The notes: generated by a model from the sequence alone, not told the origin. A stretch of DNA of 64,000 nt from Lactobacillus sp. (GCA_022484695.1 JAKVKU010000006.1:76003-140002), one strand, 5' to 3'; positions 6,765 to 61,880 are shown, numbered from the stretch's first letter. Program-made: numbers and translations.

Positions 6765-6778
6765 CAGGGCATTCCCTA
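6765..6778. promoter_or_regulatory. Palindromic box CAGGG-CATT-CCCTA (shared with lctP and lutA promoters)
   Basis: See finding; upstream of TTGACT (6795-6800)-16 nt-TATAAT (6817-22). Confidence 0.55.
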
Positions 6779-12666: not shown

Positions 12667-12747
12667 TAGGGAATACCCCAGACGTCTTCAAGTGCAAATC
12701 CTAAATTAAAATAGTACAATTAATTGGTAACGTGAAAACGCTTTACA
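12667..12747 (+). promoter_or_regulatory. lctP promoter region: TAGGG-AATA-CCCCA box, promoter and cre-like site
   Basis: Box 12667-80; GTGCAA (12692-97)-17-TACAAT (12715-20); TGAAAACGCTTTACA (12733-47). Confidence 0.6.
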
Positions 12748-12769: not shown

Positions 12770-14296
12770 ATGTGGCTTAATTTTATTTTTGCACTTATTC
12801 CCATCGTATGGCTCATTGTATCTTTAGGGGTCATCAAAATGGCTGCCGATCGGGCTTGTACCATCGGCTTGATCATTGCAATCTTTTTAGCAGTCGTTGC
12901 ATTCAAAATGCCAGTTGTAGATAGCTTGTCCGGTGCCCTGGAAGGTATTGTCATGGGGATCTGGCCAATTGTCTATGTCATTTTAGCAGCGTTGTTTACG
13001 TATAATTTAACAACGAAGTCTGGCAGCATGAAGGTTATTCAAGACATGCTCTCAGCCATCACCACGGACAAACGGATTTTGACGTTGATTATTGCCTGGG
13101 GTTTTGGGGGCTTTCTTGAAGCCATTGCTGGTTTTGGGACCGCCGTTGCCATTCCAGCCGGGATTTTAATTGCCTTTGGTGTTGATCCGATTCGGGCATC
13201 AGTGATTTGTTTGATTGCCAATACCACGCCAACTGCCTTTGGGGCCATTGGTTTGCCAGTTATCACCTTGGCCAACGTCACGCATTTAAATACCATGCAT
13301 CTATCATTTATCGTAACCATGCAATTATTGCCACTGATTATTTTAATTCCATTCGTACTAGTGGCCTTGGTAGATGGGGGTGTTAAAGCCATTAAAGGTG
13401 TGGGCTTAACGACTTTCCTTTCAGGTTTAGCGTTTGCTTTACCGCAAGTTTTCGTGGCTAAATATGTGGGCGCTGAATTGCCTGCTATTGTGGGGTCAAT
13501 CGTTTGTATTATCGTCACGGTCTTAATGGCCCGAGTGCAAGGGCAAAAGGATGAAGAGGCTTTAAAACACATTCCCCGGCATACCACCAGCGAATTGTTG
13601 AAAGCTTGGGCACCTTTTATCCTTGTTTTCGTGATCGTCTTGCTGGCTTCACCATTGGATAAACCAGTGAATACCATGCTAGGAAAGGCTGTCACTGCCA
13701 TTCAAATCTATACCGGACCAAAAGCGGTCCCTTATACGATCAACTGGCTATCTTCCCCAGGGACTTTGATCATTGTCGCCAGCGTATTGGGGGGCTTGAT
13801 TCAAGGTATGTCCTTGGGTAAGATTTTCGGGGTCCTAGGCAACACGGCCAAACAAATTTGGCGGACGTTAATTACCGTCTGTGCCATTGTGGCTTTGGCC
13901 AAGGTCATGGGCTATTCTGGCATGACCCAAAGCTTAGCCGTGACTTTAGTGGCAATCATGGGTCCAGTTTATCCATTGATTGCGCCAGTTATTGGGGCTT
14001 TAGGGACCTTTATCACTGGGTCGGACACCTCTTCAAACGTCTTGTTTGGGAACTTACAACTGCAAGCAGCCACAACTTTAAAAGCCGATACCTATTGGGT
14101 CGTTAGTGCCAACATGGTGGGGGCCACAGCCGGTAAGATGATTTCACCACAAAGTATCGCTGTCGCTTCCGCAGCCACGCACCAAGAGGGTCAAGAAGGA
14201 AATATCTTGAAGGAATCTCTCAAATGGTGTGGCGCTTATCTGGTAGTTATTTGTGCTTACATTTATGTGACCGGCTTGTTGCTTCATTTCTTATAA
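12770..14296 (+). CDS. lctP: L-lactate permease (LctP/LutP family)
   Basis: FGGFLEAIAGFG, ANTTPTAFGAIG, TGSDTSSNVLFG, GKMISPQSIAVA motifs; AGGAGG RBS; terminator 14309-14339. Confidence 0.95.
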   Translation: MWLNFIFALIPIVWLIVSLGVIKMAADRACTIGLIIAIFLAVVAFKMPVVDSLSGALEGIVMGIWPIVYVILAALFTYNLTTKSGSMKVIQDMLSAITTDKRILTLIIAWGFGGFLEAIAGFGTAVAIPAGILIAFGVDPIRASVICLIANTTPTAFGAIGLPVITLANVTHLNTMHLSFIVTMQLLPLIILIPFVLVALVDGGVKAIKGVGLTTFLSGLAFALPQVFVAKYVGAELPAIVGSIVCIIVTVLMARVQGQKDEEALKHIPRHTTSELLKAWAPFILVFVIVLLASPLDKPVNTMLGKAVTAIQIYTGPKAVPYTINWLSSPGTLIIVASVLGGLIQGMSLGKIFGVLGNTAKQIWRTLITVCAIVALAKVMGYSGMTQSLAVTLVAIMGPVYPLIAPVIGALGTFITGSDTSSNVLFGNLQLQAATTLKADTYWVVSANMVGATAGKMISPQSIAVASAATHQEGQEGNILKESLKWCGAYLVVICAYIYVTGLLLHFL

Positions 14297-33689: not shown

Positions 33690-33717
33690 GTAGAAGTCAA
33701 ATTTATACAAATATCCA

Positions 33718-33792
33718 ATATTCCCTACGCTAATATTACTTAGATCAGGTTCAATGGGTATAATCTCAGCCGTATGTGGCACCCCAGAAAGT
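33718..33792 (-). ncRNA. TPP riboswitch (controls ECF operon)
   Basis: Minus strand GGGGTGCC...GGCTGAGATTATACCCATTGAACCTGATCTAAGTAATATTAGCGTAGGGAA (CUGAGA, ACCUGA, GCGUAGG cores). Confidence 0.95.
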
Positions 33793-33944
33793 TTATTTAA
33801 TTGTGTGGTCTTGTAACAAGAGCATCTTACCATGGCTTAGTAACTTCTGTAAAGTGGATTGGTTCAAATTATTTTATCAGCAAGTTTTAAAAAAAGGATT
33901 TGCAATTTTAAAAATATGTGATACATTTAGGTCATTCAAATATG

Positions 33945-34020
33945 AATCACTAGGGGTGCCTTGAGCTGAGATTATACCCGTAGAACCTGATTTGGTTAAG
34001 ACCAACGTAGGAAAGTGATT
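33945..34020 (+). ncRNA. TPP riboswitch (controls tenA)
   Basis: AATCACT/AGTGATT P1; GGGGTGCC..GCTGAGATTATACCCGTAGAACCTGAT..GTTAAGACCAACGTAGGAA. Confidence 0.96.
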
Positions 34021-34093
34021 GTACCATAAACTTTTTTTCGGACGTCTTCCTTTGATTCGATTTGAAACTACAAATCAAAAGGGAGCTTTTTTT

Positions 34094-48367: not shown

Positions 48368-48415
48368 GGTCGTTTTTTATTGGTGAAAATTTTAAAATAA
48401 TTCTAATTAACAACT

Positions 48416-48510
48416 TAGGGGAATCCCTACATTTTGAGCAGCATAAACTGAGATTAGCGGTCAAGCCTTGGTATGATTGGGTTTTAATCGTTTTCATGAA
48501 AACCCTTATC
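48416..48510 (+). promoter_or_regulatory. lutA upstream region: TAGGG-GAAT-CCCTA box, extended -10 and cre-like sites
   Basis: Box 48416-29; TGGTATGAT (48469-77); TGAAAACCCTTATC (48497-510) and its mirror TTAATCGTTTTCA. Confidence 0.6.
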
Positions 48511-48614
48511 GGTTTTTAAAAGGCTGTGGTCTGCGCTACAATTGAAGTTATAAATATTGCACTCATTCTTAGAATGTTTTTATAAATTGTCGTAGGTGAC
48601 TAGGAGGTATTCGG

Positions 48615-49379
48615 ATGAAAGTTGTTATTTTTTCAACCTGTGTGGTTGATTTAGAATTCCCAAATGTTGGGATTGCAATGACCGAAGTTTTAGAACGCTT
48701 TGGCTGTGATTGCTATTTGCCAAAGGATCAAATTTGCTGTGGCCAACCCACTTTTAATAGTGGTTATGCCAAAGGGACTCAGCGGGCATTCCGTAATCAA
48801 ATCGACGCGTTGTTAAGCGTGGATGCGGATTATATCGTGGGGCCGGCCGGTTCTTGTGTGGCCATGATTCGGGAATTTCCTGAATTTATGAAAGATGATC
48901 CCCAATATGCGGACAAAGCTAGAGAAGTTGCGGCTAAAACTTTCGAATTCTCCCAATTTTTATGGCGGGTCTTAGGGGTTGAAAATGCCGGGGCCGAGCT
49001 TGATGGCCGGGCAACTTACCACCGGTCTTGTCATATGACCCGGCTGTTAGGTGAATCTGAATCACCTTATGCCTTATTAGCTCATGTGAAGGGCTTGGAA
49101 ATGATTCCTCTAGAAAATGCCCATGATTGCTGTGGTTTCGGGGGGACTTTCTCAGCAAAGGAACCTGAAATCTCCAGACAAATGGTAGATGCTAAAGTGG
49201 GCCATATTGTGGATACTGGCGCGGAAATTTTGATCAGTTGCGATCCTGGGTGTTTGATGAATATTGGGGGCCGGTTTAACCGCTTAGGCAAACCCATTAA
49301 AATCATGCACATCGCCGAAGTCCTCAACAGCAACGTGGATGAAAGCCGGATCAGTTACTTAAAACAAATGCCAGTCTAG
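48615..49379 (+). CDS. lutA: L-lactate utilization protein A (CCG domains)
   Basis: FSTCVVD, CCGQP, AGSC, YHRSCH, CCGFGGTFS, SCDPGC. Confidence 0.94.
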   Translation: MKVVIFSTCVVDLEFPNVGIAMTEVLERFGCDCYLPKDQICCGQPTFNSGYAKGTQRAFRNQIDALLSVDADYIVGPAGSCVAMIREFPEFMKDDPQYADKAREVAAKTFEFSQFLWRVLGVENAGAELDGRATYHRSCHMTRLLGESESPYALLAHVKGLEMIPLENAHDCCGFGGTFSAKEPEISRQMVDAKVGHIVDTGAEILISCDPGCLMNIGGRFNRLGKPIKIMHIAEVLNSNVDESRISYLKQMPV

Positions 49380-49402
49380 CAACAAAGGAGGAAAACTGAA
49401 TT

Positions 49403-50896
49403 ATGGGAATTCAAACGAGTGATAAACCCTTATTAGAACGGGTCAAAGAATCTGAACAAGATAAATTCATGCAAGCCTCTGTTGCGAAGGCCCAAGATGC
49501 CCAACACATTAAACGTGAAGACTCACGGGCACTTTTAGGCAATTGGGAACAATGGCGGGAATTGGGTGAACAGATCCGCCAACGGGCTTTAAAATATTTA
49601 CCAGATTATCTGGAACAGTTTAGTGATAATGTGGAAAAAAATGGTGGAGATGTCTTCTTTGCGGCCACCGAAAAAGATGCTGTGGACTATATTGAAAAAA
49701 TCGTTAAAGAAACTGGTGCCAAACGCATCGTGAAGTCTAAGTCCATGGTGACCACGGAAATTGACTTAGATAAACGGCTGTTGGCCATGAATAAAGGCTT
49801 GCAGTTAATGGAAACCGATTTGGCCGAGTTTATCTTACAAGAAGATGACTGGGATGAACCTACGCATATCGTGTTCCCCACGTTGCATAAAAACCGGGAT
49901 CAAGTCCGGGAAATCTTTATGAAGTTAGGCTATGAAGGGGACAATGACCCCATGCACTTAGCCAGATTTGCCCGGAAATTCCTGCGGGAATACTTCTTAC
50001 AAGCTGACTTAGGCATCACCGGCTGTAACTTTGCCGTGGCTGATAATGGCATGATTAACTTGGTCACCAATGAAGGGAACGCTGATTTGACCATGGCTAT
50101 TCCGAAGACGCAAATCGTGGTCATGGGCATGGAGCGGATCGTGCCAACCATGAATGATGCCGAAATCCTAGACAATATGCTGTGCCGCAGTGCCGTTGGG
50201 CAAAAACTAACCAGTTATGTGACCTTTGAAAAAGGGCAAGTCGCCGGTGAAACCGATGGCCCAGAACATTTTCATGTGGTGATCGTGGATAATAATCGCT
50301 CCCGGGCGTTGGGTTCTGAGTTTCAGTCTATTTTACAATGTATCCGGTGTGGGGCTTGTATGAACGTATGCCCAGTCTATCGGCACATTGGTGGCCACGG
50401 CTATGGGTCGATTTACCCAGGCCCATTGGGGGCTGTATTGTCGCCAATTCTAGGGGGCTACCAAGCCTTTCAAGAATTGCCTTATGCCTCTAGCTTGTGT
50501 GGGGCTTGTACAGAAGTTTGTCCAGTTAAGATTCCATTGCACAAATTATTGATTGAACATCGGCGCATCATCACCGATCAGCGCCATATGCAACATGGCC
50601 TGAACAACTTGATGATGGAGGCTATTGGGATTGGGACTGGCTTCCCATGGCTGTTTAGAACGGCAGTGCGTTTTGGCCACTTAGGCTTGAAACCATTGGC
50701 CAGCAAAGGCGAAGTCCACGCTGAGAACTTTATTAAACCCGAAGGCTCTGTTAAGGGCGGCCCTGGTTTAGTCGGTGGTTGGGCAGATGTCCGGGACTTG
50801 CCATTGCCACCTAAGAACAAGGACAGCTTTAGACAGTGGTTTGCCAAACATAAGGCAAACCAACCTCAACCCGGCGACCAAAAGGCCAATCAATAA
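49403..50896 (+). CDS. lutB: L-lactate utilization protein B (Fe-S)
   Basis: VKSKSMVTTEI, TNEGN, CIRCGACMNVCPVY, SLCGACTEVCPV. Confidence 0.96.
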   Translation: MGIQTSDKPLLERVKESEQDKFMQASVAKAQDAQHIKREDSRALLGNWEQWRELGEQIRQRALKYLPDYLEQFSDNVEKNGGDVFFAATEKDAVDYIEKIVKETGAKRIVKSKSMVTTEIDLDKRLLAMNKGLQLMETDLAEFILQEDDWDEPTHIVFPTLHKNRDQVREIFMKLGYEGDNDPMHLARFARKFLREYFLQADLGITGCNFAVADNGMINLVTNEGNADLTMAIPKTQIVVMGMERIVPTMNDAEILDNMLCRSAVGQKLTSYVTFEKGQVAGETDGPEHFHVVIVDNNRSRALGSEFQSILQCIRCGACMNVCPVYRHIGGHGYGSIYPGPLGAVLSPILGGYQAFQELPYASSLCGACTEVCPVKIPLHKLLIEHRRIITDQRHMQHGLNNLMMEAIGIGTGFPWLFRTAVRFGHLGLKPLASKGEVHAENFIKPEGSVKGGPGLVGGWADVRDLPLPPKNKDSFRQWFAKHKANQPQPGDQKANQ

Positions 50897-50910
50897 GGAG
50901 GACCGCAGCC

Positions 50911-51624
50911 ATGACGATTTATAATCGAGAAGCGTTTTTAGACCGCTTATCAGAACGTTTAGGCACACCTAGACATCAAATGGATAAAGAACCATTTATT
51001 CACCGTAATCAGTTGCCTGAAGAAACCTTGGCAGATTTATCCAGCGATGAATTATTAGACTTAGCCAAGAATACTAGTGAAGCGTTACATGTTACTTTTC
51101 AAGTGACTGACCAAACCGGCTTACCGGCCATCCTAGATGAATATTTGAAACGGATCGGGGCCGGACAGTTGATTTTACCCACGGAACCAGACCAAGTGGC
51201 TGACTATCAGTTACAAGACTGGATCGACACGGTGGCCAAAGAACGAACGGTCAAATATTGGGATCCCAAAGCTGACCGAGCAACGAATCTAGCTACTTCC
51301 CAAGATTCCATGGTGGCCATTGGCTTTGGGGATTATCTGCTGGCTGAATCGGGGACGATTACGGTGCCAACGACCCCAGGGCAGGGGCGGGCTTTTAATT
51401 TCTTGCCAACCCATTACTTGAGTATTGTGAAACGCAGCCATATTTTACCTAGATCCACCCAAGTGACTAAGATCTATGATGACAAGATCAAATCCGGGGA
51501 GTTAGTCACTTCTAATATTAACTATATTTCTGGACCATCTAACTCCGGGGATATCGAAATGGTTTTGATCGTCGGTGTCCATGGTCCTTTAGATATGACT
51601 TATGTGGTGGTTAACGACCGTTAG
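50911..51624 (+). CDS. lutC: L-lactate utilization protein C (LUD domain)
   Basis: LAESGT, LPTHY, ISGPSNSGDIEM.LIVGVHGP. Confidence 0.94.
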   Translation: MTIYNREAFLDRLSERLGTPRHQMDKEPFIHRNQLPEETLADLSSDELLDLAKNTSEALHVTFQVTDQTGLPAILDEYLKRIGAGQLILPTEPDQVADYQLQDWIDTVAKERTVKYWDPKADRATNLATSQDSMVAIGFGDYLLAESGTITVPTTPGQGRAFNFLPTHYLSIVKRSHILPRSTQVTKIYDDKIKSGELVTSNINYISGPSNSGDIEMVLIVGVHGPLDMTYVVVNDR

Positions 51625-51756
51625 CAAATATACAAATGAGACTTGTGGCGCATTTTCAGCTGCAGGTCTTTTTTGATGGTCAGGGACAGGTTATTTTGTG
51701 ATATTCGGCTTTTTCGGTATAATTAGTTTATTGTATAGATGCAGGAGGCAGTTTTT

Positions 51757-52734
51757 TTGAAGAAATCTGGGGTACTTTTGATTAATTTGGGCACACCAAA
51801 AAGCGCGGCACCAAAAGATGTCCGCCAATTTTTAAGCCATTTTTTAAGTGATCCACGGGTGATCGATATGCCCCGAGCTTTTTGGTGGTTGATATTACAT
51901 GGGATGATTTTACCTTTTCGCCCCAAACACTCGGCTAAAATGTATGGGCAAATTTGGGACCCTGAACTGGGGGGCTCGCCCTTGTTGTATTACACCCAGC
52001 AAGTGACCCAAAAGCTCCAGGCCAGCTTATCCGGCTACGACGTGCGCTTTGCCATGAGCTATTCTCAGCCGACGATTGCCCAGGTCTTGCAAGACTTTAA
52101 TGACCAGGGGATTGAAGATTTGACCATTGTACCCATGTATCCGCAGTTTTCCACCACCACGGTGGGGTCGGTGTATGATGCGGTGGCTAATTTTTATTTA
52201 AAAAAAGCCCGCATCCCCCATCTGCATATCATTACAGATTTTTACCAGGATGCGCGCTATATTCAAGTTTTAGCCAATACGATTCAACAAGCGTTAGATG
52301 CCCATCCTAACGCCGATGAGTTATTATTTTCTTATCATGGGATTCCCCAACGTTATGTGGCCGAGAAAAAAGATCCCTATTTTGAACAATGTCATATCAC
52401 CACGGAAATGACCATGGAGCGCTTAGATCATGCGATTCCCTATGAAATGACCTTCCAGTCCAAATTTGGACCGGGCCAGTGGTTAACGCCAGCCACCCAC
52501 GAAACGGTGGTCAAGCTGGCCCAAAATGGGGCCAAAGAGCTGTTAGTGGTGACCCCAAGCTTCACGGCGGATTGCCTAGAGACTTTGTATGAAATCAATA
52601 CGGAAAACCGCCGTTATTTCTTAGAAGCCGGGGGCAGTGAATTTCATTTTATTTCACCCTTAAATGATAACACTGAATTTGTTGATTTTTTGACCCAGTT
52701 GATCACTGAAAACTCAGCGACCCAAAGGCAATAA
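51757..52734 (+). CDS. hemH: Ferrochelatase
   Basis: GVLLINLGTP, FLSDPRV, FSYHGIP, FQSKFG..WL.P, FTADCLETLYEI. TTG 51757 after AGGAGG (ATG 51739 is the alternative). Confidence 0.95.
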   Translation: MKKSGVLLINLGTPKSAAPKDVRQFLSHFLSDPRVIDMPRAFWWLILHGMILPFRPKHSAKMYGQIWDPELGGSPLLYYTQQVTQKLQASLSGYDVRFAMSYSQPTIAQVLQDFNDQGIEDLTIVPMYPQFSTTTVGSVYDAVANFYLKKARIPHLHIITDFYQDARYIQVLANTIQQALDAHPNADELLFSYHGIPQRYVAEKKDPYFEQCHITTEMTMERLDHAIPYEMTFQSKFGPGQWLTPATHETVVKLAQNGAKELLVVTPSFTADCLETLYEINTENRRYFLEAGGSEFHFISPLNDNTEFVDFLTQLITENSATQRQ

Positions 52735-53628
52735 CAAGCCCAGGCCAAAGGTAACCACTAAGGCCAAGGTAGAGACGAATAGATTTTTCACGGCAAAAAT
52801 AAAGGTTTCTTTCTTGACTTGTTTGGCCAATAGTTTTTGGGTATTTTTAACAATAATTGGGATGGTCAACAGGGTCAACAAGCTTAAAAGTGGGAGGACG
52901 TTTAAAATGACGGCCACCACTAGGCTGGCATACCCCAGGATCTCCAAGGTCACATAAAACTTCAAGCTATTGGGTACGCCGATGTAGTAGACAATGGTTT
53001 TGCGGCCCAATTGAATGTCTTCTTGGGCGTCACAGAAGTTATTGGCCAATAGTAAGCTGGCAATCATGGTCATGGCTAAGCCCGAGGCTAAAAGAACGGG
53101 CCAGACAAAGGCCCAGTTAAAGGTGATTTGATCATACACGTTAATATATACGGCAATCAAGGTAATCATAAAGCCCATGGTGAAACCGGAGAAAAATTCC
53201 CCAAAAGGTGTGCCGGAGATGGGCCGGGGACCAGCGGCATAAAACCAGCCTACTAGAAAACACCAGGCGCCCATGACCAACAGGGGCCAACCAACGTTGG
53301 CCACAATGATCAGGCCAATTAAACCGGCACTGACCATCATTAAAATGGTCATCCAAGCAATTTTTTTAGGATTTAAGTGATTGACGCCAATGATATTGGT
53401 TTTACGGCGAAAATCTTGGGCGTGGGTGGCCCGGGTATAGTCTTGATAATTATCATGGGCATCGACAGCCATATTAAAGACAAACATGGCAATGAAAAAT
53501 AAGATCAAGAAAACGGGATGGATGCTGCGATAATGGTACCAAGCAAAAAAGGTACCCAGCAGAAATGGGAAAATACTCGCAGTTTTAGCTTTTATTTCGA
53601 CTAATTCTAAAAAGACGCTTAAAGTCAC
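52714..53628 (-). CDS. menA: 1,4-dihydroxy-2-naphthoate polyprenyltransferase (UbiA family)
   Basis: LELVEIKAK, DNYQDY, YAAGPRPIS.TPFGE, LANNFCD..ED...GRKT. Confidence 0.9.
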   Translation of the reverse strand: MTLSVFLELVEIKAKTASIFPFLLGTFFAWYHYRSIHPVFLILFFIAMFVFNMAVDAHDNYQDYTRATHAQDFRRKTNIIGVNHLNPKKIAWMTILMMVSAGLIGLIIVANVGWPLLVMGAWCFLVGWFYAAGPRPISGTPFGEFFSGFTMGFMITLIAVYINVYDQITFNWAFVWPVLLASGLAMTMIASLLLANNFCDAQEDIQLGRKTIVYYIGVPNSLKFYVTLEILGYASLVVAVILNVLPLLSLLTLLTIPIIVKNTQKLLAKQVKKETFIFAVKNLFVSTLALVVTFGLGLLLPLGR

Positions 53629-53717
53629 GAAAAAACATTTCCTTTCTTTGACGATATTGGTTAATATAAAACTAACATACTTGCGCTAAAAAAACAGTTG
53701 TAAAGAGGTAGAACACG

Positions 53718-54689
53718 GTGATTTCAATTAATCCAATGTGGACAGCTTTTCCAGGCTTGCACGATCAACTGATGCAAGTGGAGCAAGTTATCCAAGCTAA
53801 TATAAAGCTACGCAATAAAGCGATTCAAAATACGTTAGAGGCCTTGACCATCAATGGGGGGAAATTGGTGCGGCCGGCGTTTTTATTATTGTTTGCCACC
53901 TTTGGCCCCCAACAAGATCCCACGAAGTTTAGTAGGAGTGCTGCGGCCATGGAGATCTTACACCTGGCCACCTTGATCCATGATGATGTCATCGATGATT
54001 CCCCACTGCGGCGGGGGGTCACCACCATGCATACCCATTATGGCAAGCGCAATGCCATTTATGCCGGGGATTATTTATTCACGGTTTATTTTGAATTGAT
54101 CAACGAAACCGCCCGCAATGCCCAGGATACCCATTTGAATGCCATCAGCATGCGACAGATCCTGTTAGGGGAACTGGACCAGATGCGTTTTGATTTTAAC
54201 ACGGGGATGACGGTCAAGGACTACCTCCGGGAGATCGACGGCAAAACCGCCGCGTTATTTCAATTGAGCTGTGAAATGGGGACGCGGCTAAGTGGGGCTA
54301 GTTTGACCATCCAGCGCCGGGCCCGGCGGATCGGCCATGATATTGGGATGGCTTTTCAAGTTTTAGATGACATTTTAGATTATACCCAATCTGAAGCGAC
54401 ATTGGCCAAGCCCAATGGGGAGGATTTACGTTCGGAAACCTATTCGATTCCGCTATTATTCGCCGTTCAAAATTATCCTGAACTTAAAACCCTGCTCCGG
54501 CAAGAAATGACCCCGGCCCATGTGGCTTATTTGGTTCATTTAGTCCAAACTTATGGTGTACCGGATGCCAAGGACTTAGCCAGTCGTTACACCCAAAAAG
54601 CGCTGAGGGAAATTGCCCAGCTACCCAATGGGGATGCGGCTGAAATTTTGAAACAAATTACCCAGGCTTTATTGCTCCGGACCAACTAA
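53718..54689 (+). CDS. Polyprenyl diphosphate synthase (HepT-like)
   Basis: GGKLVRP, LIHDDVIDDS..RRG, GKTA, FQVLDDILD. Confidence 0.93.
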   Translation: MISINPMWTAFPGLHDQLMQVEQVIQANIKLRNKAIQNTLEALTINGGKLVRPAFLLLFATFGPQQDPTKFSRSAAAMEILHLATLIHDDVIDDSPLRRGVTTMHTHYGKRNAIYAGDYLFTVYFELINETARNAQDTHLNAISMRQILLGELDQMRFDFNTGMTVKDYLREIDGKTAALFQLSCEMGTRLSGASLTIQRRARRIGHDIGMAFQVLDDILDYTQSEATLAKPNGEDLRSETYSIPLLFAVQNYPELKTLLRQEMTPAHVAYLVHLVQTYGVPDAKDLASRYTQKALREIAQLPNGDAAEILKQITQALLLRTN

Positions 54690-54843
54690 TAGGGCCAGCA
54701 CAGCCATAATAATACTTGAAGTTAAGACAAGCTCGCTGGTTTTTCAGGGGCTTGTTTTTTGTTGGGGATTTCAAGTCGAATTAATTGCTTCTAAAGCCCA
54801 TTCTCGGTAGGATTACAGTGAATTGAGAAAGGGATGTTTTGTG

Positions 54844-55482
54844 ATGGCAAAATTTGATTATCGTACCATAGAAGCCCAAGAGTATTCCCACGTTGATAAG
54901 CCCTCAGTGGTCATTTTAAATGAACGTAATTATATCACCCTCAAGTCAAAGGGGCGCTTTGATTTACAAGATGCCCAATTCATGCAACAAGTCGCCAGTA
55001 TGTACGCCTTAGCTGACGGTATTCGGCAACAGGCGGCCACCAGTAACAAATTGCCTTGGTATAAAGATTATGTGCCCTACCCCTTAAACAGTTATTGGTA
55101 TGACGACGGTAGTTACTTATTGCTGATCAAGCAGCCTAATTTTACCATTCCTGAACTCCTGGATAATGCCAAGGCTGACCTGGCTGGAAAATTTCCAGCA
55201 GCATTATTAGCGGATATCCACTTTGAACGGCATGCCGAAGGGGTTGAGGCCCAATTGATCAATCACGGGCCCGTGCATGTTGATAATGCCACCTTTCAGG
55301 CCTTGGCTAAATTTATGGCGGACAATCAATTCCAGCGCCATTTCAGCGGGCACCGGGAAGTTTATTTGACCTCTTTAACCCCTGATCTAGACCCGGCCAA
55401 ACTTGAAGTATTGGTCCGCATCCCCATTGAACGTAATGAGAGCAGTTTAGATTCCGGCCGGTTTCCCGTGGCTGAAAATTAA
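54844..55482 (+). CDS. GyrI-like small-molecule-binding domain protein
   Basis: DYVPYPL..YW, LLIKQP, EGVEAQL..HGP, HREVYL. Confidence 0.8.
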   Translation: MAKFDYRTIEAQEYSHVDKPSVVILNERNYITLKSKGRFDLQDAQFMQQVASMYALADGIRQQAATSNKLPWYKDYVPYPLNSYWYDDGSYLLLIKQPNFTIPELLDNAKADLAGKFPAALLADIHFERHAEGVEAQLINHGPVHVDNATFQALAKFMADNQFQRHFSGHREVYLTSLTPDLDPAKLEVLVRIPIERNESSLDSGRFPVAEN

Positions 55483-55498
55483 GATGAAGTTCCCATTT

Positions 55499-55546
55499 AA
55501 AAAGCCGCCAATCATGCCCCGTACTGGGAGATGATGGTGGCTTTTT
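55499..55546. terminator. Bidirectional terminator between GyrI-like gene and cydC
   Basis: AAAAAGCCGCCA...TGGTGGCTTTTT. Confidence 0.75.
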
Positions 55547-55554
55547 GCGTGGTG

Positions 55555-57297
55555 TTAAAAACCCCGATCCATATCATAAAGTTGCTTGAAATGGGCGTTG
55601 GTTTGTAATAATTCATGGGGATTACCCTGCATCTCAATGGCCCCCTCAGCTAAGAAGACCACTTGATCCACCAACTCCACCCCCTGGAGATGGTGGGTGA
55701 TCCAAATAACGGTTTTGCCCTTTAGCAGGCTAAAGAAGGTTTCCAAGAGTTCTTGCTCGGTAATGGGGTCCAACCCCACGGTAGGTTCGTCCAACAAGAC
55801 CACTGGGGTATCTTGTAATAAGATCCGGGCTAAGGCGATCCGTTGGCGTTCGCCTCCGGAAAAGCGGCTGCCGGCTTCTTGAACCACGGTGTCGTATTGA
55901 TCCGGTAGGGATTCGATTTTTTGTTTCATCTGAACTTTTTCTAAAACAGCTTTCACATCGGCATCGCTGGCTTGTTCATTGCCCAAGCGCACGTTGTTCA
56001 TGATGGTGGTGTCAAACAAGAAAGGACTTTGGTTTAAGACGGCAAAGAATTTGGACCGTTCTTGCTGCAAACTTAAGACGTTCATATCGTTGACTTTCAC
56101 GGCCCCTTGTTGAGGGGTCAGATCTCCTAAAATCAGTTGCAGCAAGGTGGTTTTCCCGGTACCACTGGGGCCCAGGACCGCCATTTTCTCACCTTTTTGC
56201 AGGGTCTGGGAGAAATGGTTGATCAATACTGGGGAGTCAGCATCATATTCAAATTGCAGATTAGCCAAGGTTAGTTGTTTAAAGGCTTGGGGATCTAAAT
56301 CCTGTTGGGCCGGCAGCTGTTGGGGCGTTGGTTGCAAGTCATTTAACCGCTGCACCGAATCTGCATACAAGGGTAACTCGTCAAAGCCGGTACTGATGGG
56401 GATAAAGGCATCGGATAAAGGAAAAATCGCCAAGACAAAGGCACTGACAAAATTAGCTTGAGCTTGATTGCCCGTGAGGTGCTGGTTGGTAAAGACGATC
56501 AGCACTAAAACCATCACTAAGAAGATAATTTGTAAGATGAAATCCCGCCGCCAACCAAAGTGCTTGCTTTTCAGTTCTGAAGCTCTTAAGGCTTTTAAAG
56601 CAGGTTTGGGCCGTTGGGTGAAATCTTGATGGCGCCCAGAAATCACCCAATCCGAAGCCCCCATGATATTGTCGGTGAGGTCCACATATAAGCTGTTGTT
56701 AATGGCCTTTTGCCGGTAGCGTCTAGCCCCTTCGATACTTTGAGAAATCAGGGGGACTAAAAAGATCTCCACAAAGAATAGTAACAGGAGTAATAGGCCA
56801 TAGAACCAATTTAAAGCCCCGATCAAGACGATCACGATGAAACCGATGAGATAACCCACGATTGTTGGGAAAACGGTTCTTAAGTAGAGATTTTGCAAAT
56901 GACCTAAGTCATCGGCCAATATCCCTAAGATATCCCCAGTCCGATGGTGTTCTTCAAAAAAGGCTGCATCTTTTTCCAAAACATGGTAGAGGCGCCGTCT
57001 TAAATCAGAAGTGACCCGCAGCACCCAATTATGGCTGCGCAGGCGTTCTAAATATTTAAAGACGGGACGGCCGATCCCAAAGGCCCGGGTCAAAACTACT
57101 GCCGCATAAATCATCAAAATATTGTAGGGATGGGTGGCGGAGCGGTCGATGATATACCCGGAGGTAAACATCAAGGCCGAGGCACAAATGGCGGTTAAAA
57201 CCCCAAAGAGCAGGGAGTAGAACAAAAGGGAACGGTACCGTTTTAAATAGGGTTTCACCCAAGTATCATGTTGCATCAATTCGCGAATTTTTTTCAT
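55555..57297 (-). CDS. cydC: Thiol/heme ABC exporter subunit CydC
   Basis: LMFTSGY, TRAFGIGRP, GPSGTGKT, FSGGERQR, LLDEPT. ATG 57297 overlaps the cydD stop. Confidence 0.94.
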   Translation of the reverse strand: MKKIRELMQHDTWVKPYLKRYRSLLFYSLLFGVLTAICASALMFTSGYIIDRSATHPYNILMIYAAVVLTRAFGIGRPVFKYLERLRSHNWVLRVTSDLRRRLYHVLEKDAAFFEEHHRTGDILGILADDLGHLQNLYLRTVFPTIVGYLIGFIVIVLIGALNWFYGLLLLLLFFVEIFLVPLISQSIEGARRYRQKAINNSLYVDLTDNIMGASDWVISGRHQDFTQRPKPALKALRASELKSKHFGWRRDFILQIIFLVMVLVLIVFTNQHLTGNQAQANFVSAFVLAIFPLSDAFIPISTGFDELPLYADSVQRLNDLQPTPQQLPAQQDLDPQAFKQLTLANLQFEYDADSPVLINHFSQTLQKGEKMAVLGPSGTGKTTLLQLILGDLTPQQGAVKVNDMNVLSLQQERSKFFAVLNQSPFLFDTTIMNNVRLGNEQASDADVKAVLEKVQMKQKIESLPDQYDTVVQEAGSRFSGGERQRIALARILLQDTPVVLLDEPTVGLDPITEQELLETFFSLLKGKTVIWITHHLQGVELVDQVVFLAEGAIEMQGNPHELLQTNAHFKQLYDMDRGF

Positions 57298-59054
57298 GAA
57301 AGGCTCACCCGCTTTTGCATATGTTGTGTTAACGCTGTAAATTCTCCTGGTGTAGCTTGAAGCTGTGCTAAAGTGCCCTGTTGCACCAAGTGGCCATCTT
57401 TCATGACTAAAATATAATCCATTTCTTTGAGCCAATGGAGCCGATGGGTGGCAAATAACACCAGGTGATTCTTGAATAAGGGCATCATGGTTTCTTTTAA
57501 AGCATATTCGGTTTCAATATCCAAATGGGCCGTGGGTTCGTCAAACATGAGCACGTGGCGATCCTGGTCTAAAAAGGCCCGGGCCAAGGCAATCCGCTGG
57601 GCCTGGCCGCCACTAATGCCCCGACCACCTTCGCCGACTAATGTATTTAAACCGTCTTTTAAGGTGGCTAAAAAGTCGTCTAAGCCGGCTTTAGAAGCTG
57701 CCGCCGCCACTTGGGCAGCGCTGGCCTTGGGCTGGTAGAAGGCAATGTTGGCGGCAATGGTATCGGCGAATAAATAAGGAAACTGGGGGATAAAGGCAAA
57801 CTGTTGCTGCCAATTGGCTTGGCTTAAGTGGGGCAGCGGTTGCCCATTTAAGGTGAAGTTGGCGACTTTAGGGTCCTCAGATTTTAACGGGGTCAAAAAG
57901 CCTCCCAAGGCATTGAGCAAGGTGGTCTTCCCGGACCCACTCATGCCAATGATCCCCACTTTTTGATAACCCTTTAAGGTGAAGGCGATGTCCGTGAGGT
58001 CAATGGCCTCATTTTCATCAGGGCTATATTGGAGATTAAAGTGATTGGCAACTAACGTGCTATTTTCGTCCCACTTAAAGGTAGCCGGCACCAGTTGTCG
58101 ATTGCTAACACTGGGCTGGGCGACGATATCTAAAATATCGGTCAAGGCGTTCTTGCCATCCAAGGTGGCATGGTAGTCATTACCGAAGTCTCTGATGGGT
58201 AAAAAGAATTCCGGTGCCAGGATCAAAGAAACTAAGGCTGGGAACAAAGGAATGCTGCCATTGATCAGGCCTAAGCCTAGGAATAAAGCCAAGAGGGCAA
58301 TGGATAAGGTGGTAAACCAGTCTAAGGCAAAGGTGGATAAAATGGCGATTTTTAAGACGTCCATGGTACTGCGGCGATAGTCTTCACTGACGTTGTAAAC
58401 ATTGGTTTCATATTTTTCCGAGAGACCCAGAAATTTTAACGTGGACAAGCCCCGCAGGGAATCCACAAAGTGGTTAGACAGCCGTAGGAAACCGGCATAT
58501 TGTTTATCGGCTTTGTCTTGGGCGGCGAAGCCTAAAATGATCATGAAGATGATCACAATGGGGAAGACTAGGGTTAAAATCAAACCACTGCGGCCACTGT
58601 TGAAATAGATATAAATGAGGATCAGCCAGGGAATGATGGCCATGTCGATAATTTTGGCGAAAATCAAATTGAAATAATTATAAACATTATTGATCCCATC
58701 TAAAGCCACGGTGACCAATTTCCCAGTACCGCTTTGGGCAACTTGGCTGGCACCGGTGACATAGACCTTGTCTAAGAGCTGATCCCGCAAAGCGCCGCTG
58801 GTTTTGTCCGCATATTTATCCAGGACAACATTTTTGATCCAGACACATAACTGCCGAATCAAAAAGGCACAGGCAAAAAGAATGGTGCCGGTGGTTAAAC
58901 TATTTAGGGGCTGCATCCGCCAAGATAAAACCAGAACTTTGGTCAAGAAGTGAGCTTGGGCAATGATGGCTCCAGCTTGAATCAGGGTCAACAGCGCAGA
59001 TATTATTAAGATGACGCGGACGCCAGGTAATTTAAACAGGCGTTGATCAATCAT
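57294..59054 (-). CDS. cydD: Thiol/heme ABC exporter subunit CydD
   Basis: MIDQRLF, LAPEFF.P.RDFG.DYHA.LDG, GMSGSGKT, ISGGQAQR. Confidence 0.94.
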   Translation of the reverse strand: MIDQRLFKLPGVRVILIISALLTLIQAGAIIAQAHFLTKVLVLSWRMQPLNSLTTGTILFACAFLIRQLCVWIKNVVLDKYADKTSGALRDQLLDKVYVTGASQVAQSGTGKLVTVALDGINNVYNYFNLIFAKIIDMAIIPWLILIYIYFNSGRSGLILTLVFPIVIIFMIILGFAAQDKADKQYAGFLRLSNHFVDSLRGLSTLKFLGLSEKYETNVYNVSEDYRRSTMDVLKIAILSTFALDWFTTLSIALLALFLGLGLINGSIPLFPALVSLILAPEFFLPIRDFGNDYHATLDGKNALTDILDIVAQPSVSNRQLVPATFKWDENSTLVANHFNLQYSPDENEAIDLTDIAFTLKGYQKVGIIGMSGSGKTTLLNALGGFLTPLKSEDPKVANFTLNGQPLPHLSQANWQQQFAFIPQFPYLFADTIAANIAFYQPKASAAQVAAAASKAGLDDFLATLKDGLNTLVGEGGRGISGGQAQRIALARAFLDQDRHVLMFDEPTAHLDIETEYALKETMMPLFKNHLVLFATHRLHWLKEMDYILVMKDGHLVQQGTLAQLQATPGEFTALTQHMQKRVSLS

Positions 59055-59173
59055 AAAATCACCAATTTTCAAGAAAGATAGTTGCTAAAAGGTTAAGAAC
59101 ATAAGCAGAGAGGCCGGGGCAAAAGTAAGTTTTGCCGTCGACCTCTCTAAAAGTTATTGGATTAATAAAGCGT

Positions 59174-60175
59174 TTATGCGCTGGCTTTGACCCGCCGTTT
59201 GAAGATGAAGAAGCTCCAAATGAAGTAAGCCAACATGATCGGTAGTAAGATACAAGCCACAATGGTCATGATCTTCAAAGTATAAGGGGATGCCGAAGCG
59301 TCTTTGATCAACAGGCTGTGGGCTGGATTGTCAGCAATCAAGACCCGTGGGAACAAGCCGTTGAACAATAAGATCACGATGGAACCTAAGGTCAAACCGC
59401 TGGTGATGAAGCCCCAGCCTTCGTGGTCGGCGTATGCACAGTACATGGAGATAGCTGACAAGGCCACGATCAAGACCAAAAGCAATAGGGTAGAAATTGG
59501 ACGTTCTTTGAAGAAGTCTGTGAAGATGAACAAAAGAATTGCAAAGACAACTTCACCGGCAAACAAGACCCAATATAACTTTTCAACGAGGTTTCTAGCC
59601 CGATCTCTTAAGTTGCCGTCAATTTTCAAACGAATGAAGTTCAGGCCGTGGATCAAGCAAAGTAAGGTAACGGCAACGCCACCCACAATGGATAACAAGT
59701 TCACGTTATCCCAGAGGCCAGCGAAGATGTCGCCATTTTTGTCCATTGGTAAACCCTGGATCAAGCTGGTAAACATCATCCCTAATAAGAATGGGGCAAC
59801 GGTACTGCCAATGCACAAAGCCCAATACCAGAAACGGCGGCCCCCAGCAGTTTCAGCGTTGGCGGAGAATTCAAAGGAAACGCCCCGGAAAATCAACGCA
59901 CACAAGGTTAAGAACAAGAGAATGTAGTAACCGGAAAATAGGCTGGCGTACCATAGTGGGAATGAGGCGAACATGGCCCCGCCGGCGGTGATCAACCAGA
60001 CTTCATTGCCATCCCAGTGGGGACCAATGGTGGCGATCAAGGATTCCCGGTCGTCGTCATTTTTAGCTAAAACCCGGGTGGCCATGCCAACACCAAAGTC
60101 AAAGCCCTCTAAGAAGAAGAATCCGATAAATAAAACTGCGATTAAAATGAACCATAATAGTTGTAAGGCACTCAT
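59174..60175 (-). CDS. cydB: Cytochrome bd ubiquinol/menaquinol oxidase subunit II
   Basis: FFLEGFDFG, GPHWDGNEVWL, FRGVSFE, SPYTL. Confidence 0.96.
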   Translation of the reverse strand: MSALQLLWFILIAVLFIGFFFLEGFDFGVGMATRVLAKNDDDRESLIATIGPHWDGNEVWLITAGGAMFASFPLWYASLFSGYYILLFLTLCALIFRGVSFEFSANAETAGGRRFWYWALCIGSTVAPFLLGMMFTSLIQGLPMDKNGDIFAGLWDNVNLLSIVGGVAVTLLCLIHGLNFIRLKIDGNLRDRARNLVEKLYWVLFAGEVVFAILLFIFTDFFKERPISTLLLLVLIVALSAISMYCAYADHEGWGFITSGLTLGSIVILLFNGLFPRVLIADNPAHSLLIKDASASPYTLKIMTIVACILLPIMLAYFIWSFFIFKRRVKASA

Positions 60176-61614
60176 CTTCCAAACGCCTCCTTGCTGAATG
60201 GATCGTTGTTTGCTGTTGCACCATAACCTGCGCCATCATCATCGGGACCTTTGATCATGATCTTTCTAGAATAGAAGACCATCACAGCGCCCATTAAGGA
60301 GAACATCAGGAAGTAAACAATATTTGTAAACCACAATTGACCAGCTGTCGTTGTTGGGGATACCCCATCAGCGATGGTTTGTAAGCCGTAAACCAACCAA
60401 GGGTAACGGCCTAATTCGGTGATTAACCAACCGGCTGAGTTGAAGACAAATGGGGTATAAGTGCAAATCCCTAAGACCCAAAGCAACCAGCGTTTGTTTT
60501 CAATCGTGTTCTTGTTCTTGCGGGTGAAGATCAGACCCAAGATAGACGTGAGCAGTAATAAAGCTGCCCCGCCGGCCATGACTCTGAAGCTCCAGAAGAC
60601 GGTCTTGACAGGGACATAGTAATTCATGTCAGCGCCGAACTTCTTATCATATTTAGCGTGTAACTCTTGATTCAAGGAATTCATCCCTTGAACACTCCCA
60701 GTGGTCTTGTGATAAGCTAACAGGCTCAAAACCTTAGGAATTTCAATCGAACTTTTAGTTTCGTGCTTATCGGTATCAAAACTAGCAATGACTGTCCATG
60801 GGGCTGACTTACCAGTGTCTTTGTAGACCCCTTCAGTAGCGGCAAACTTCATGGGTTGGTCCTTGATAATTTGTTGGGTTTGAAAATCCCCAGCGACGAT
60901 AACAGCAACTGCCGCAAATAAGCTGACCCAAAGGCCGATCCGCATGGATTTCTTGAAGAAATCATGGTTATGCTTGCGCAATAAACCAAAGGCCGCGATC
61001 CCCACGACAACGGTGGCAGCGGTTAAGATTGCCCCGGTAATGACATGGGGGAACACTTTCCAAAGTTGTGGATTGGCGATGATCGCACCAAAACTGGTCA
61101 TTTTAACCCGACCAGTGGCTTGGTTGATTGCAAAGCCAGTTGGATGTTGCATGAAACTGTTGGCTGCTAAGATCCAAATTGCGGAACACATGGAACCGAT
61201 CATGGTCAACCAGATAAACCAAACGTGGACCGCTGGTTTAAACCGATTCCAAGTGAACATCCAGACCCCAATGAAGACTGATTCCATAAAGAATGCTAAC
61301 AGTGCTTCAATGGCTAGTGGGGCGCCAAAGATATCGCCCATGAAACGTGAATAATTAGACCAGTTCATCCCGAACTGGAACTCTTGAATAATACCAGTGA
61401 CAACCCCAACGGCAAAACTCAGTAAGAAAATCTTCCCCCAGAATTGTGCCATCTTCTTATAGGTCTCATCTTTCTTAACCACGTACATGGTTTCCATAAT
61501 AGCGACGACAAATGCCATCCCAATGGAAAATGGTACGAAGAAGAAGTGAAAGACCGTTGTCATTGCGAATTGCCATCGAGCTAATGACAAAACACCAATA
61601 CTCATCAGTGCCAT
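60172..61614 (-). CDS. cydA: Cytochrome bd oxidase subunit I
   Basis: ARWQFAMTTVFHFFFVP, QEFQFGMNW, QPMKFAA.EG, GW..TELGR.PW. GGGAGG RBS favours ATG 61614. Confidence 0.97.
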   Translation of the reverse strand: MALMSIGVLSLARWQFAMTTVFHFFFVPFSIGMAFVVAIMETMYVVKKDETYKKMAQFWGKIFLLSFAVGVVTGIIQEFQFGMNWSNYSRFMGDIFGAPLAIEALLAFFMESVFIGVWMFTWNRFKPAVHVWFIWLTMIGSMCSAIWILAANSFMQHPTGFAINQATGRVKMTSFGAIIANPQLWKVFPHVITGAILTAATVVVGIAAFGLLRKHNHDFFKKSMRIGLWVSLFAAVAVIVAGDFQTQQIIKDQPMKFAATEGVYKDTGKSAPWTVIASFDTDKHETKSSIEIPKVLSLLAYHKTTGSVQGMNSLNQELHAKYDKKFGADMNYYVPVKTVFWSFRVMAGGAALLLLTSILGLIFTRKNKNTIENKRWLLWVLGICTYTPFVFNSAGWLITELGRYPWLVYGLQTIADGVSPTTTAGQLWFTNIVYFLMFSLMGAVMVFYSRKIMIKGPDDDGAGYGATANNDPFSKEAFGR

Positions 61615-61880
61615 ACTAACAACCTCCCTAAAAAACATACAAAAAATCAAATAAAAACTAAGTAGAAAAATTATAATTTATAACTATTATTATTGTAGTT
61701 TGAAAAGCGACAGATAGCAACTAGAAACTGTTTTATATCGGGAATTCTTTGTTAATTTAGCCTAATTCTTATTGAAGAAATTAACCAAATTATTGCCAGT
61801 GTAGCCGATTACATTTGCTTTCAGGGATTTTCAACCAAATATTGGGGAATATGCTAAAATTGAAACTAGAGGTGAGTAAT

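Follow-up and report, generated by a model that had tools for sequence, protein, structure and literature searches.

Within 64,000 nucleotides of a genome deposited as Lactobacillus sp. (GCA_022484695.1 JAKVKU010000006.1:76003-140002; hereafter the window, with positions counted from its first letter), the 13 kb from 48615 to 61614 hold 11 intact genes, namely lutABC, hemH, menA, a gene for a prenyl-diphosphate synthase (isp), orf219 and cydABDC. We find that this cluster, carried by an Agrilactobacillus close to A. composti, is a cofactor-dependent respiratory neighbourhood of lactic acid bacteria (LAB) in an unusually complete form. Its components and the salvage ideas attached to them were each known before. 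New is the make-up of the neighbourhood, in which lutABC and an orphan, apparently protoporphyrin-type ferrochelatase are joined to the LAB cyd-isp-menA island without a gene (ndh) for a type II NADH dehydrogenase (NDH-2), and also the linkage of lut and respiratory genes, which judging from gene order would be an old feature of three Lactobacillaceae genera. Lactate is a plausible electron donor to the encoded chain, and we give about even chances to the more specific reading in which it would supply one electron-entry branch of a salvage-dependent cytochrome bd chain, beside an NADH dehydrogenase encoded elsewhere. A first-pass annotation of the sequence had proposed a chain that scavenges its cofactors and is fed by the cell's own lactate, an interpretation that is partly supported overall.

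Gene content and conservation of the cluster

The identities assigned to the genes all exceed the curated cut-offs of the Pfam and NCBIfam profiles (Table 1). Every gene that the first-pass annotation had named in the cluster is present, intact and exactly where it had been placed. Its cydABDC group also holds as regards the genes, with the refinements that their order is cydA-cydB-cydD-cydC, that an eleventh open reading frame (ORF) lies at 54823-55482 (orf219), and that the cluster is not an operon. Since its genes fall into at least five transcription units on both strands, the region from 48615 to 61614 is a set of neighbours rather than one operon; menA and isp are divergent, the 3' end of menA overlaps hemH convergently by 21 nt, and cydABDC converges with orf219. 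By their profile matches CydA, CydB, CydD and CydC are all full length, so that a cytochrome bd oxidase is encoded together with its CydDC exporter. The true start of cydA is likely at 61614, and cydC most likely starts at 57297, which is Met47 of the longest ORF and overlaps the cydD stop codon. Transmembrane segments are predicted in MenA, CydA, CydB, CydD and CydC, and the same prediction finds none in LutABC, HemH or the prenyl synthase.

The cluster is real and stable in the genus. Its arrangement recurs identically in the genome of an A. composti isolate (CydA 98% identical) and is therefore not an assembly artefact, and a bioreactor-sludge metagenome run contains every sampled word of window positions 48400-53700. 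The core cydABDC-isp-menA-hemH is found in four Agrilactobacillus lineages, one of them an uncultured relative (CydA 82% identical) whose 14-kb contig ends after hemH, and lutABC adjoins the core in the three species with data. A. fermenti and A. yilanensis carry insertions of their own. In A. fermenti, lutC and hemH are parted by genes for a glutamate-cysteine-ligase-like protein (507 aa) and a C26 gamma-glutamyl peptidase (L001:12604-14849), inserts that may point to a thiol or glutathione link to the CydDC exporter. A. yilanensis keeps cydABDC and has about 12 kb inserted between cydC and isp, with a large KxYKxGKxW surface protein and an operon headed by an FNT-family channel gene and encoding a formate dehydrogenase. 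This operon (RHOY01000001.1, L089:2734-9950) is tightly packed between the surface-protein gene and cydC, its alpha subunit being a molybdopterin protein of 906 aa; an NAD-linked formate dehydrogenase beside a respiratory cluster is unusual for a lactobacillus.

On the far side of cydA the surroundings differ between species, with an aldo-keto reductase, a cation efflux protein, a carbonic anhydrase and a FecCD-type importer in A. composti, and parB and gidB in A. yilanensis; neither ndh nor men genes, nor genes of heme synthesis, were seen in the flanks covered beyond cydA in these two species. It is also important to separate orf219 from the core of the cluster, of which it is not a member: it is kept in A. 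composti and A. fermenti and absent from A. yilanensis and the uncultured lineage. The idea that this soluble protein might be a small subunit, forming a heterodimeric prenyl synthase with a larger partner, was considered and rejected, since it has no such domain and is absent from those two lineages. No RNA element in the cluster was matched by Rfam models. A literature search returned nothing on respiration, ndh or menaquinone in Agrilactobacillus or L. composti, and the species is not listed in the supplements of the eLife survey of extracellular-electron-transfer genes. RNA-seq runs of the organism were sought, and none exist.

Table 1. Genes of the cluster, promoter elements, and the two other genes preceded by a TAGGG-N4-CCCTA box in the window.
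Feature	Position	Strand	Evidence and remarks
Box before FNT gene	6765-6778	+	TAGGG-N4-CCCTA type
FNT-family channel gene	6980-7807	+	PF01226, 228 bits
Box before lctP	12667-12680	+	TAGGG-N4-CCCTA type; 34 kb off
lctP, lactate permease	12770-14296	+	PF02652, 445 bits; TIGR00795, 429 bits (cut-off 341)
TAGGGGAATCCCTA palindrome before lutA	48416-48429	+	exact TAGGG-N4-CCCTA; some 200 bp upstream of lutA and near -126 relative to the inferred transcription start
cre-like TTTAATCGTTTTCA	48483-48496	+	one mismatch to TGWAANCGNTNWCA; just upstream of the lutA -35; partly kept in relatives
Probable lutABC promoter	48515-48542	+	TTTAAA, 16 nt spacer, TACAAT (promoter scan)
lutA	48615-49379	+	PF02754 (CCG) twice, 114.5 bits; Fe-S subunit
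lutB	49403-50896	+	TIGR00273, 522 bits (cut-off 444.8); PF02589 LUD domain and PF13183 4Fe-4S dicluster
lutC	50911-51624	+	PF02589 LUD domain, 91.9 bits
hemH promoter-like site	51696-51723	+	TTGTGA, 16 nt spacer, TATAAT (promoter scan)
hemH	51739-52734	+	TIGR00109, 319 bits (cut-off 124.6)
menA	52714-53628	-	NF004752, 365 bits (cut-off 289)
isp, predicted long-chain trans-prenyl-diphosphate synthase	53718-54689	+	PF00348, 204 bits; divergent from menA
orf219 (219 aa, soluble)	54823-55482	+	GyrI-like match, weak, E=0.014
cydC, ABC exporter subunit for cytochrome bd assembly	55555-57297	-	TIGR02868, 476 bits (cut-off 329)
cydD	57294-59072	-	TIGR02857, 530 bits (cut-off 435)
cydB, cytochrome bd subunit II	59174-60175	-	PF02322, 324 bits; TIGR00203, 306 bits
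cydA, cytochrome bd subunit I	60172-61614	-	PF01654 positions 1-418 of 418, 528 bits

Proposed salvage of heme and quinone precursors

In the textbook view of LAB respiration, electrons run from NADH through NDH-2 and menaquinone to cytochrome bd, in a chain that is triggered by scavenged heme and quinone. With the genes present here, CydAB would be supplied with hemes b and d either by heme import or by HemH metallating protoporphyrin IX that the cell has imported, and MenA, a polyprenyltransferase, would prenylate 1,4-dihydroxy-2-naphthoate (DHNA) to give (demethyl)menaquinone, the DHNA being imported if the genome, as in most Lactobacillaceae, lacks the upstream men genes. The first-pass annotation had argued from such cofactor salvage, and for this logic there is direct precedent: HemH appears to be of the protoporphyrin type and belongs to an orphan family of LAB, and menA with the prenyl synthase matches known cases of DHNA salvage.

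Sequence comparison predicts that HemH is an orphan ferrochelatase acting on protoporphyrin (PpfC rather than CpfC). It aligns over its full length to human FECH with 125 bits, as against partial alignments of about 50-58 bits to the coproporphyrin ferrochelatases of Firmicutes (Listeria/Bacillus). Invariant in the family alignment are NLGTP, which we take to be the E. coli-type motif, the catalytic His200 (SYHG) and Glu281 (DCLETL); many family members carry the rule-based UniRef label "coproporphyrin III ferrochelatase". The relatives are orphan genes, 44-57% identical, in Liquorilactobacillus, Carnobacterium, Enterococcus, Latilactobacillus and Lactococcus (the Lactococcus homologs at 44-45%), and those that come next, outside LAB, are gammaproteobacterial. 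The hemH gene has unrelated neighbours in three other LAB, so its position inside a respiratory cluster is specific to Agrilactobacillus. Nor is hemH tied to the lut operon, since two unrelated genes separate it from lutC in A. fermenti; in the window the lutC-hemH gap of 114 nt holds a promoter-like site of its own. A separate observation comes from Boudabousia liubingyangii (Actinomycetaceae; L051), where lctP-lutABC lie within 2 kb of a hemH homolog that is 41% identical.

Salvage of protoporphyrin by an orphan HemH is established biology in Lactococcus lactis: the wild type shows a growth response to heme or protoporphyrin IX, and a hemH mutant to heme only (PMC4696147, citing Duwat 2001). 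The likeness extends further in that the ferrochelatase is an orphan of the same family, protoporphyrin IX or heme activates a cydAB-dependent respiration, and lutABC is present in the genome (PMC4696147, PMC3821033). The species differs from Agrilactobacillus in making its own menaquinone and in having hemH unlinked to cyd or men genes, the linkage being judged from related LAB. We also considered the FecCD importer near cydA of A. composti (Peripla_BP_2 ABC importer, about 5-9 kb beyond cydA; L087:72-3806) as evidence for porphyrin uptake and dropped it, since it is of the generic Fe-siderophore/dicitrate type with no sign of a heme-specific role and does not occur at the corresponding place in A. 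yilanensis or in the uncultured lineage.

On the quinone side, MenA has eight hydrophobic, transmembrane-like segments, as a UbiA-fold MenA should. The prenyl synthase carries DDVID at residue 89 and DDILD at 217, with Ala84/Thr85 at -5/-4 of the first motif, and stays under the equivalog cut-offs of the models for hepta-, hexa- and octaprenyl synthases. Lactobacillaceae and Streptococcus agalactiae usually have menA and a long-chain prenyl synthase unaccompanied by the upstream men genes. Lactiplantibacillus plantarum has only menA and menG of the men genes (PMC8303990) and converts exogenous DHNA to menaquinones MK-6 and MK-7 via menA (PMC10746273, PMC8303990); it resembles the present case in retaining the terminal steps only (menA/dmkA and a prenyl synthase), and differs in that these genes map to the FLEET extracellular-electron-transfer locus with ndh2, or close to it, with no linkage to lutABC or hemH described. 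In S. agalactiae, menA is the sole men gene and forms one operon with ndh and cydAB (PMC6030563). This operon is like the Agrilactobacillus cluster in linking the bd oxidase to menA, in its scavenged cofactors and in the absence of other men and heme genes (here, from the window), but its NDH-2 is the sole electron entry and is encoded within the operon, whereas the Agrilactobacillus cluster has no ndh, adds lutABC, hemH and the prenyl-diphosphate synthase, and is split over its several transcription units.

LutABC, its synteny and the upstream box

The lut genes have the order and the domains expected of LutABC (LldEFG/YkgEFG). They run as lutA-lutB-lutC on the plus strand from 48615 to 51624 with gaps of 23 and 14 nt, and encode a LutA with two CCG domains, a LutB with LUD and dicluster domains and a CxxCxxCxxxC motif at residue 313, and a LutC with a LUD domain. 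Of the fused NCBIfam model "L-lactate dehydrogenase (quinone) LdhH", one half aligns with LutB and the other, C-terminal one with LutA. Across Agrilactobacillus species the genes are intact and 77-100% identical; LutB is 97% identical to the protein of A. composti DSM 18527, 87% to that of A. fermenti and 84% to that of A. yilanensis, LutC is 96% identical to the A. composti protein, and proteins of Bacillaceae, Staphylococcus and Paenibacillus are about 47-53% identical to LutB. The three-subunit architecture is that of the LutABC/LldEFG systems of Bacillus subtilis, Shewanella, Campylobacter and Bacteroides fragilis (PMC3821033, PMC13185528), organisms that differ in making their own heme and quinone, in having full chains, and in that their lutABC does not lie beside cyd, men or hemH.

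We compared 31 LAB loci holding lutABC, and in most of them its neighbours are unrelated (phosphotransferase system components, permeases, TnpB, a GGDEF/EAL protein, a GH1 glycosidase). Two other lineages have the Agrilactobacillus neighbourhood. In Ligilactobacillus murinus/animalis (L012, L017, L029) the order is cydABDC, isp (reverse), menA (forward), a 402-aa flavoprotein and then lutABC, the proteins being 42-69% identical to those of the window. The flavoprotein is a genuine NDH-2, with 297 bits to the Staphylococcus aureus NDH-2 (5NA1) and 290 bits to 4NWZ, and a single menA-ndh-lutABC operon can be dismissed since a strong terminator follows ndh. Besides this NDH-2 between menA and lutABC, the island differs from that of Agrilactobacillus in having no hemH, in placing lutABC in the same orientation as menA and behind the terminator, and in lacking the TAGGG-N4-CCCTA box described below. 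Lacticaseibacillus nasuensis shows the same order and orientation, with nine unrelated genes (about 9 kb) between menA and lutA. What is specific to Agrilactobacillus is the inversion of lutABC, the presence of hemH between lutABC and menA, and the lack of ndh.

Because the same relative order recurs in three Lactobacillaceae genera, the lut/respiratory linkage would more likely be synteny of old standing, or a segment that was moved as a whole. Independent convergence of the L. murinus and Agrilactobacillus linkages was considered and dropped, since L. nasuensis has the same order with nine intervening genes. Outside the lactobacilli, in a Streptomyces sp. locus (L065), less than 10 kb separates lutABC from an ndh-like gene and cydAB. 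Bifidobacterium aemilianum (L018) has Lactobacillaceae-like LutA (72% identical) and LutB (65%), and the CydA of several Bifidobacterium spp. (P0294, P0304, P0318, P0352) is 61-68% identical, similarities that suggest a transfer of respiratory genes between lactobacilli and bifidobacteria.

Upstream of lutA lie a probable promoter, whose -10 block GCGCTACAAT is invariant in 4/4 Agrilactobacillus sequences, and a palindromic TAGGG-N4-CCCTA box. When up to one mismatch is allowed, the box occurs in the window only at 6765 (FNT gene), 12667 (lctP) and 48416 (lutA), a count that is not above chance, 20/100 shuffles giving at least three. The lutA copy and its 3' flank are kept in A. composti, A. 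fermenti and A. yilanensis and three Loigolactobacillus species have the box as well, whereas the other LAB lut loci lack it upstream of lutA. The box is missing from the cydA, menA, isp and hemH promoters, and the lactate genes form a regulon of their own that is not co-regulated with the oxidase through it. The shared box of the first-pass annotation thus stands for lutA, lctP and the FNT gene and is not supported as the mark of a single regulon of the whole cluster.

Both transporter genes that the same annotation had invoked as lactate suppliers are present, lctP at 12770 and the FNT gene at 6980, but the role given to the FNT channel is not supported. Its A. yilanensis ortholog (70% identical) heads the formate-dehydrogenase operon (FNT, orf193, NuoE-like, NuoF-like, formate-dehydrogenase alpha, MoeA), which makes formate the likelier substrate; the channel itself scores higher with FocA (117 bits) than with NirC (78 bits), both values being under their cut-offs. 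A. yilanensis has a copy of the box, TAGGGAATCCCCTC, about 850 nt upstream of the FNT start with only non-coding sequence between (L002:19910-20758), and this leader matches no riboswitch or other Rfam family (best 24.5 bits against a gathering score of 44). The presence of the box in front of lactate and formate genes hints at a regulon of respiratory donors.

We take TAGGG-N4-CCCTA, which the window sites at 6765, 12667 and 48416 fit, to be the NreC operator consensus. Lactate and formate are, moreover, classic donors of anaerobic respiration. Phosphorylated NreC binds, when oxygen is absent, to GC-rich palindromes in the promoters of nar, nir and narT (PMC8139620, a review), and the lut, lctP and FNT genes could on this basis answer to an NreBC-like oxygen sensor, with lactate (in A. 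yilanensis also formate) feeding menaquinone and then nitrate or another acceptor rather than primarily the bd oxidase. The lack of the box at the cyd promoter and its copy ahead of the A. yilanensis FNT/formate-dehydrogenase/MoeA operon agree with such an anaerobic regulon. We nevertheless consider it improbable, since the window and the Agrilactobacillus loci examined show neither nreABC nor narGHJI, nor other genes for nitrate or nitrite reductases, regulators of other families can bind a 5-4-5 palindrome, and the A. yilanensis formate dehydrogenase, with its NuoE/NuoF-like partners, appears to be soluble and NAD-linked, not quinone-linked.

Control by CcpA through cre sites was also considered and set aside, since the window has 7 matches against 3.95 expected, which is not above chance, and only two sites with at most one mismatch lie at relevant promoters. 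A near-perfect cre-like palindrome, TGTAGCCGATTACA, is located at 61800-61813 between cydA and orf142, some 190 nt upstream of cydA. A 244-aa ORF (5888-6622, minus strand) and the FNT gene diverge, and the box lies in the intergenic stretch between them; this ORF was rejected as a candidate Crp/Fnr-type regulator acting at the box, having no relative in Pfam, NCBIfam or PDB.

Acetate kinase had also been connected with the cluster as the outlet for pyruvate. The ackA gene is confirmed at 39833, but its linkage to the lactate genes is not: it lies 7.5 kb from lutA, with a glucosidase gene, a GntR regulator, an osmoprotectant ABC transporter, degV and a DUF1836 gene between, and is not part of the cluster. 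The sole LAB locus that directly links lactate-to-acetate genes is in Ligilactobacillus salivarius (L013:12427-13620), where ackA is 185 nt downstream of lutC. Elsewhere in the window are ahpC, ahpF and genes for a Nox-like flavoprotein, a D-2-hydroxyacid dehydrogenase and a serine dehydratase. Two divergent thiamine pyrophosphate (TPP) riboswitches (33704-33796, minus strand, and 33942-34030, plus strand; 65.7 and 70.8 bits) face an ECF-type transporter operon and a TenA-family gene, respectively or in the reverse order, and a TnpB/Cas12f-like transposon nuclease gene (1-1026) is cut by the window start; a TnpB related to this copy lies directly upstream of lutA in Loigolactobacillus jiayinensis (L009:7167-8936).

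Electron entry and what the cluster may mean

In the reading we favour, LctP would import L-lactate, the peripheral Fe-S enzyme LutABC would oxidise it to pyruvate and pass the electrons to the naphthoquinone pool, and CydAB would re-oxidise the quinol with O2, thereby building proton-motive force. This lactate branch would be switched on by its own regulator acting at the TAGGG-N4-CCCTA box, perhaps after sugar exhaustion, and would work beside an NADH dehydrogenase encoded elsewhere rather than replace it. The lactate/pyruvate couple (about -190 mV) is a strong enough reductant for menaquinone (-74 mV) and for demethylmenaquinone, though not for NAD+ (-320 mV). Since lutABC comes directly after the NDH-2 gene in L. 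murinus, it occupies a place in which one would look for a second quinone reductase. In B. fragilis, LutABC or other lactate dehydrogenases are needed, together with CydAB, for lactate-driven microaerobic growth (PMC13185528).

The first-pass annotation had reported no NDH-2 and no further hem or men genes in the window, and this is borne out by a profile scan of every window ORF of at least 110 aa not nested inside a larger gene and by a tblastn search with bona fide Lactobacillaceae NDH-2, which found only a Nox/Npr-type flavoprotein at 21982 (22% identity, E=0.001). Electron entry through an NDH-2 encoded in the island, as in S. agalactiae or L. plantarum, is consequently seen neither in the cluster nor in the window. 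Among relatives, no ndh lies in about 20 kb around the cluster, and the roughly 10 kb beyond cydA hold no NDH-2 gene in A. composti, A. yilanensis or the uncultured lineage. A search of the protein database with the L. murinus NDH-2 gave no Agrilactobacillus-labelled protein among the best 120 relatives, all at least 55% identical; an Agrilactobacillus ortholog, expected at about 50% identity, would have been missed at that level, the cyd and men proteins of Agrilactobacillus being only 42-57% identical to those of the L. murinus genus.

These negative results could be carried further, to a genus that has lost NDH-2, leaves NADH to Nox and AhpF, and relies on LutABC as its main quinone reductase, so that the cell would respire its own lactate with all cofactors scavenged. 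The Nox-like flavoprotein and AhpCF of the window are in keeping with this idea. However, most cyd-bearing Lactobacillaceae have NDH-2. The slot beside menA, which holds ndh in L. murinus and S. agalactiae (PMC6030563), is occupied here by hemH and lutABC, which speaks for it; against it, the apparently NAD-linked formate-dehydrogenase operon beside cydABDC in A. yilanensis suggests that NADH needs a respiratory sink, and the database search had the identity limit just described. We therefore give the complete loss of NDH-2 little credence.

It is also important to consider what weighs against lactate as a donor at all. The box, if it equals the NreC operator consensus as we presume, would imply anaerobic and not aerobic induction. 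We know of no organism in which the electron acceptor of LutABC has been rigorously established, and there is no biochemical evidence for any Lactobacillaceae LutABC, L. lactis being the only LAB with lutABC that has been examined. There, in a further difference from the reading proposed for Agrilactobacillus, extracts of respiring cells had almost no NAD-independent L-lactate dehydrogenase activity, the authors concluded that lutABC is inactive in lactate oxidation, and the oxidation of lactate was attributed to the NAD-dependent lactate dehydrogenase working in reverse (PMC3821033). The neighbours of lutABC are unrelated in most LAB genera, a strong terminator separates menA-ndh from lutABC in L. 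murinus, and the cyd, menA and hemH promoters lack the lut box, so that co-regulation with lut is not shown. With nine unrelated genes intervening in L. nasuensis, the linkage may be only inherited synteny.

That last point leads to a serious if rather unlikely alternative, in which the bd chain would be fed by NADH through an NDH-2 encoded elsewhere and LutABC would be inactive, use another acceptor or have another role such as stress protection. It draws on the same L. lactis results, on the finding that NDH-2 is the sole electron entry in S. agalactiae, the best-studied respirer that is auxotrophic for both heme and quinone (PMC6030563), on the variable content between cyd-isp-menA and lut in the three genera, on the unrelated lutABC neighbours in about six other LAB genera, and on the promoter and separate termination that lutABC has to itself, with a box not common to cyd, men or hem genes. 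Yet gene order decays fast, and the closeness of lut and menA has outlasted deep divergences within Lactobacillaceae and, in Agrilactobacillus, an inversion and lineage-specific insertions. The lutABC genes directly follow ndh in L. murinus, they are intact in Agrilactobacillus at the identities given above with promoter and operator kept, and the lactate permease gene has the same operator.

The cluster suggests, and does not show, an ability of its host to respire the lactate it produces with scavenged cofactors, a hypothesis that will come as no surprise to the specialist. If lutABC proved to be uncoupled from the quinone pool, the cluster would merely be a well-kept example of the known LAB respiratory island; in either case it offers a testable case for the role of LutABC in LAB. 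The conserved neighbourhood suggests a second electron entry point, by which lactobacilli could oxidise their own end product for energy and for relief from acid, and this is of relevance to the ecology of compost, silage and bioreactors, to cross-feeding of DHNA and porphyrins, and to the production of starter-culture biomass. Should NDH-2 have been lost and lactate be the main donor, a "homofermentative" lactobacillus would draw energy from its own end product and make its surroundings less acidic whenever neighbours in compost or sludge provided the precursors of the cofactors.

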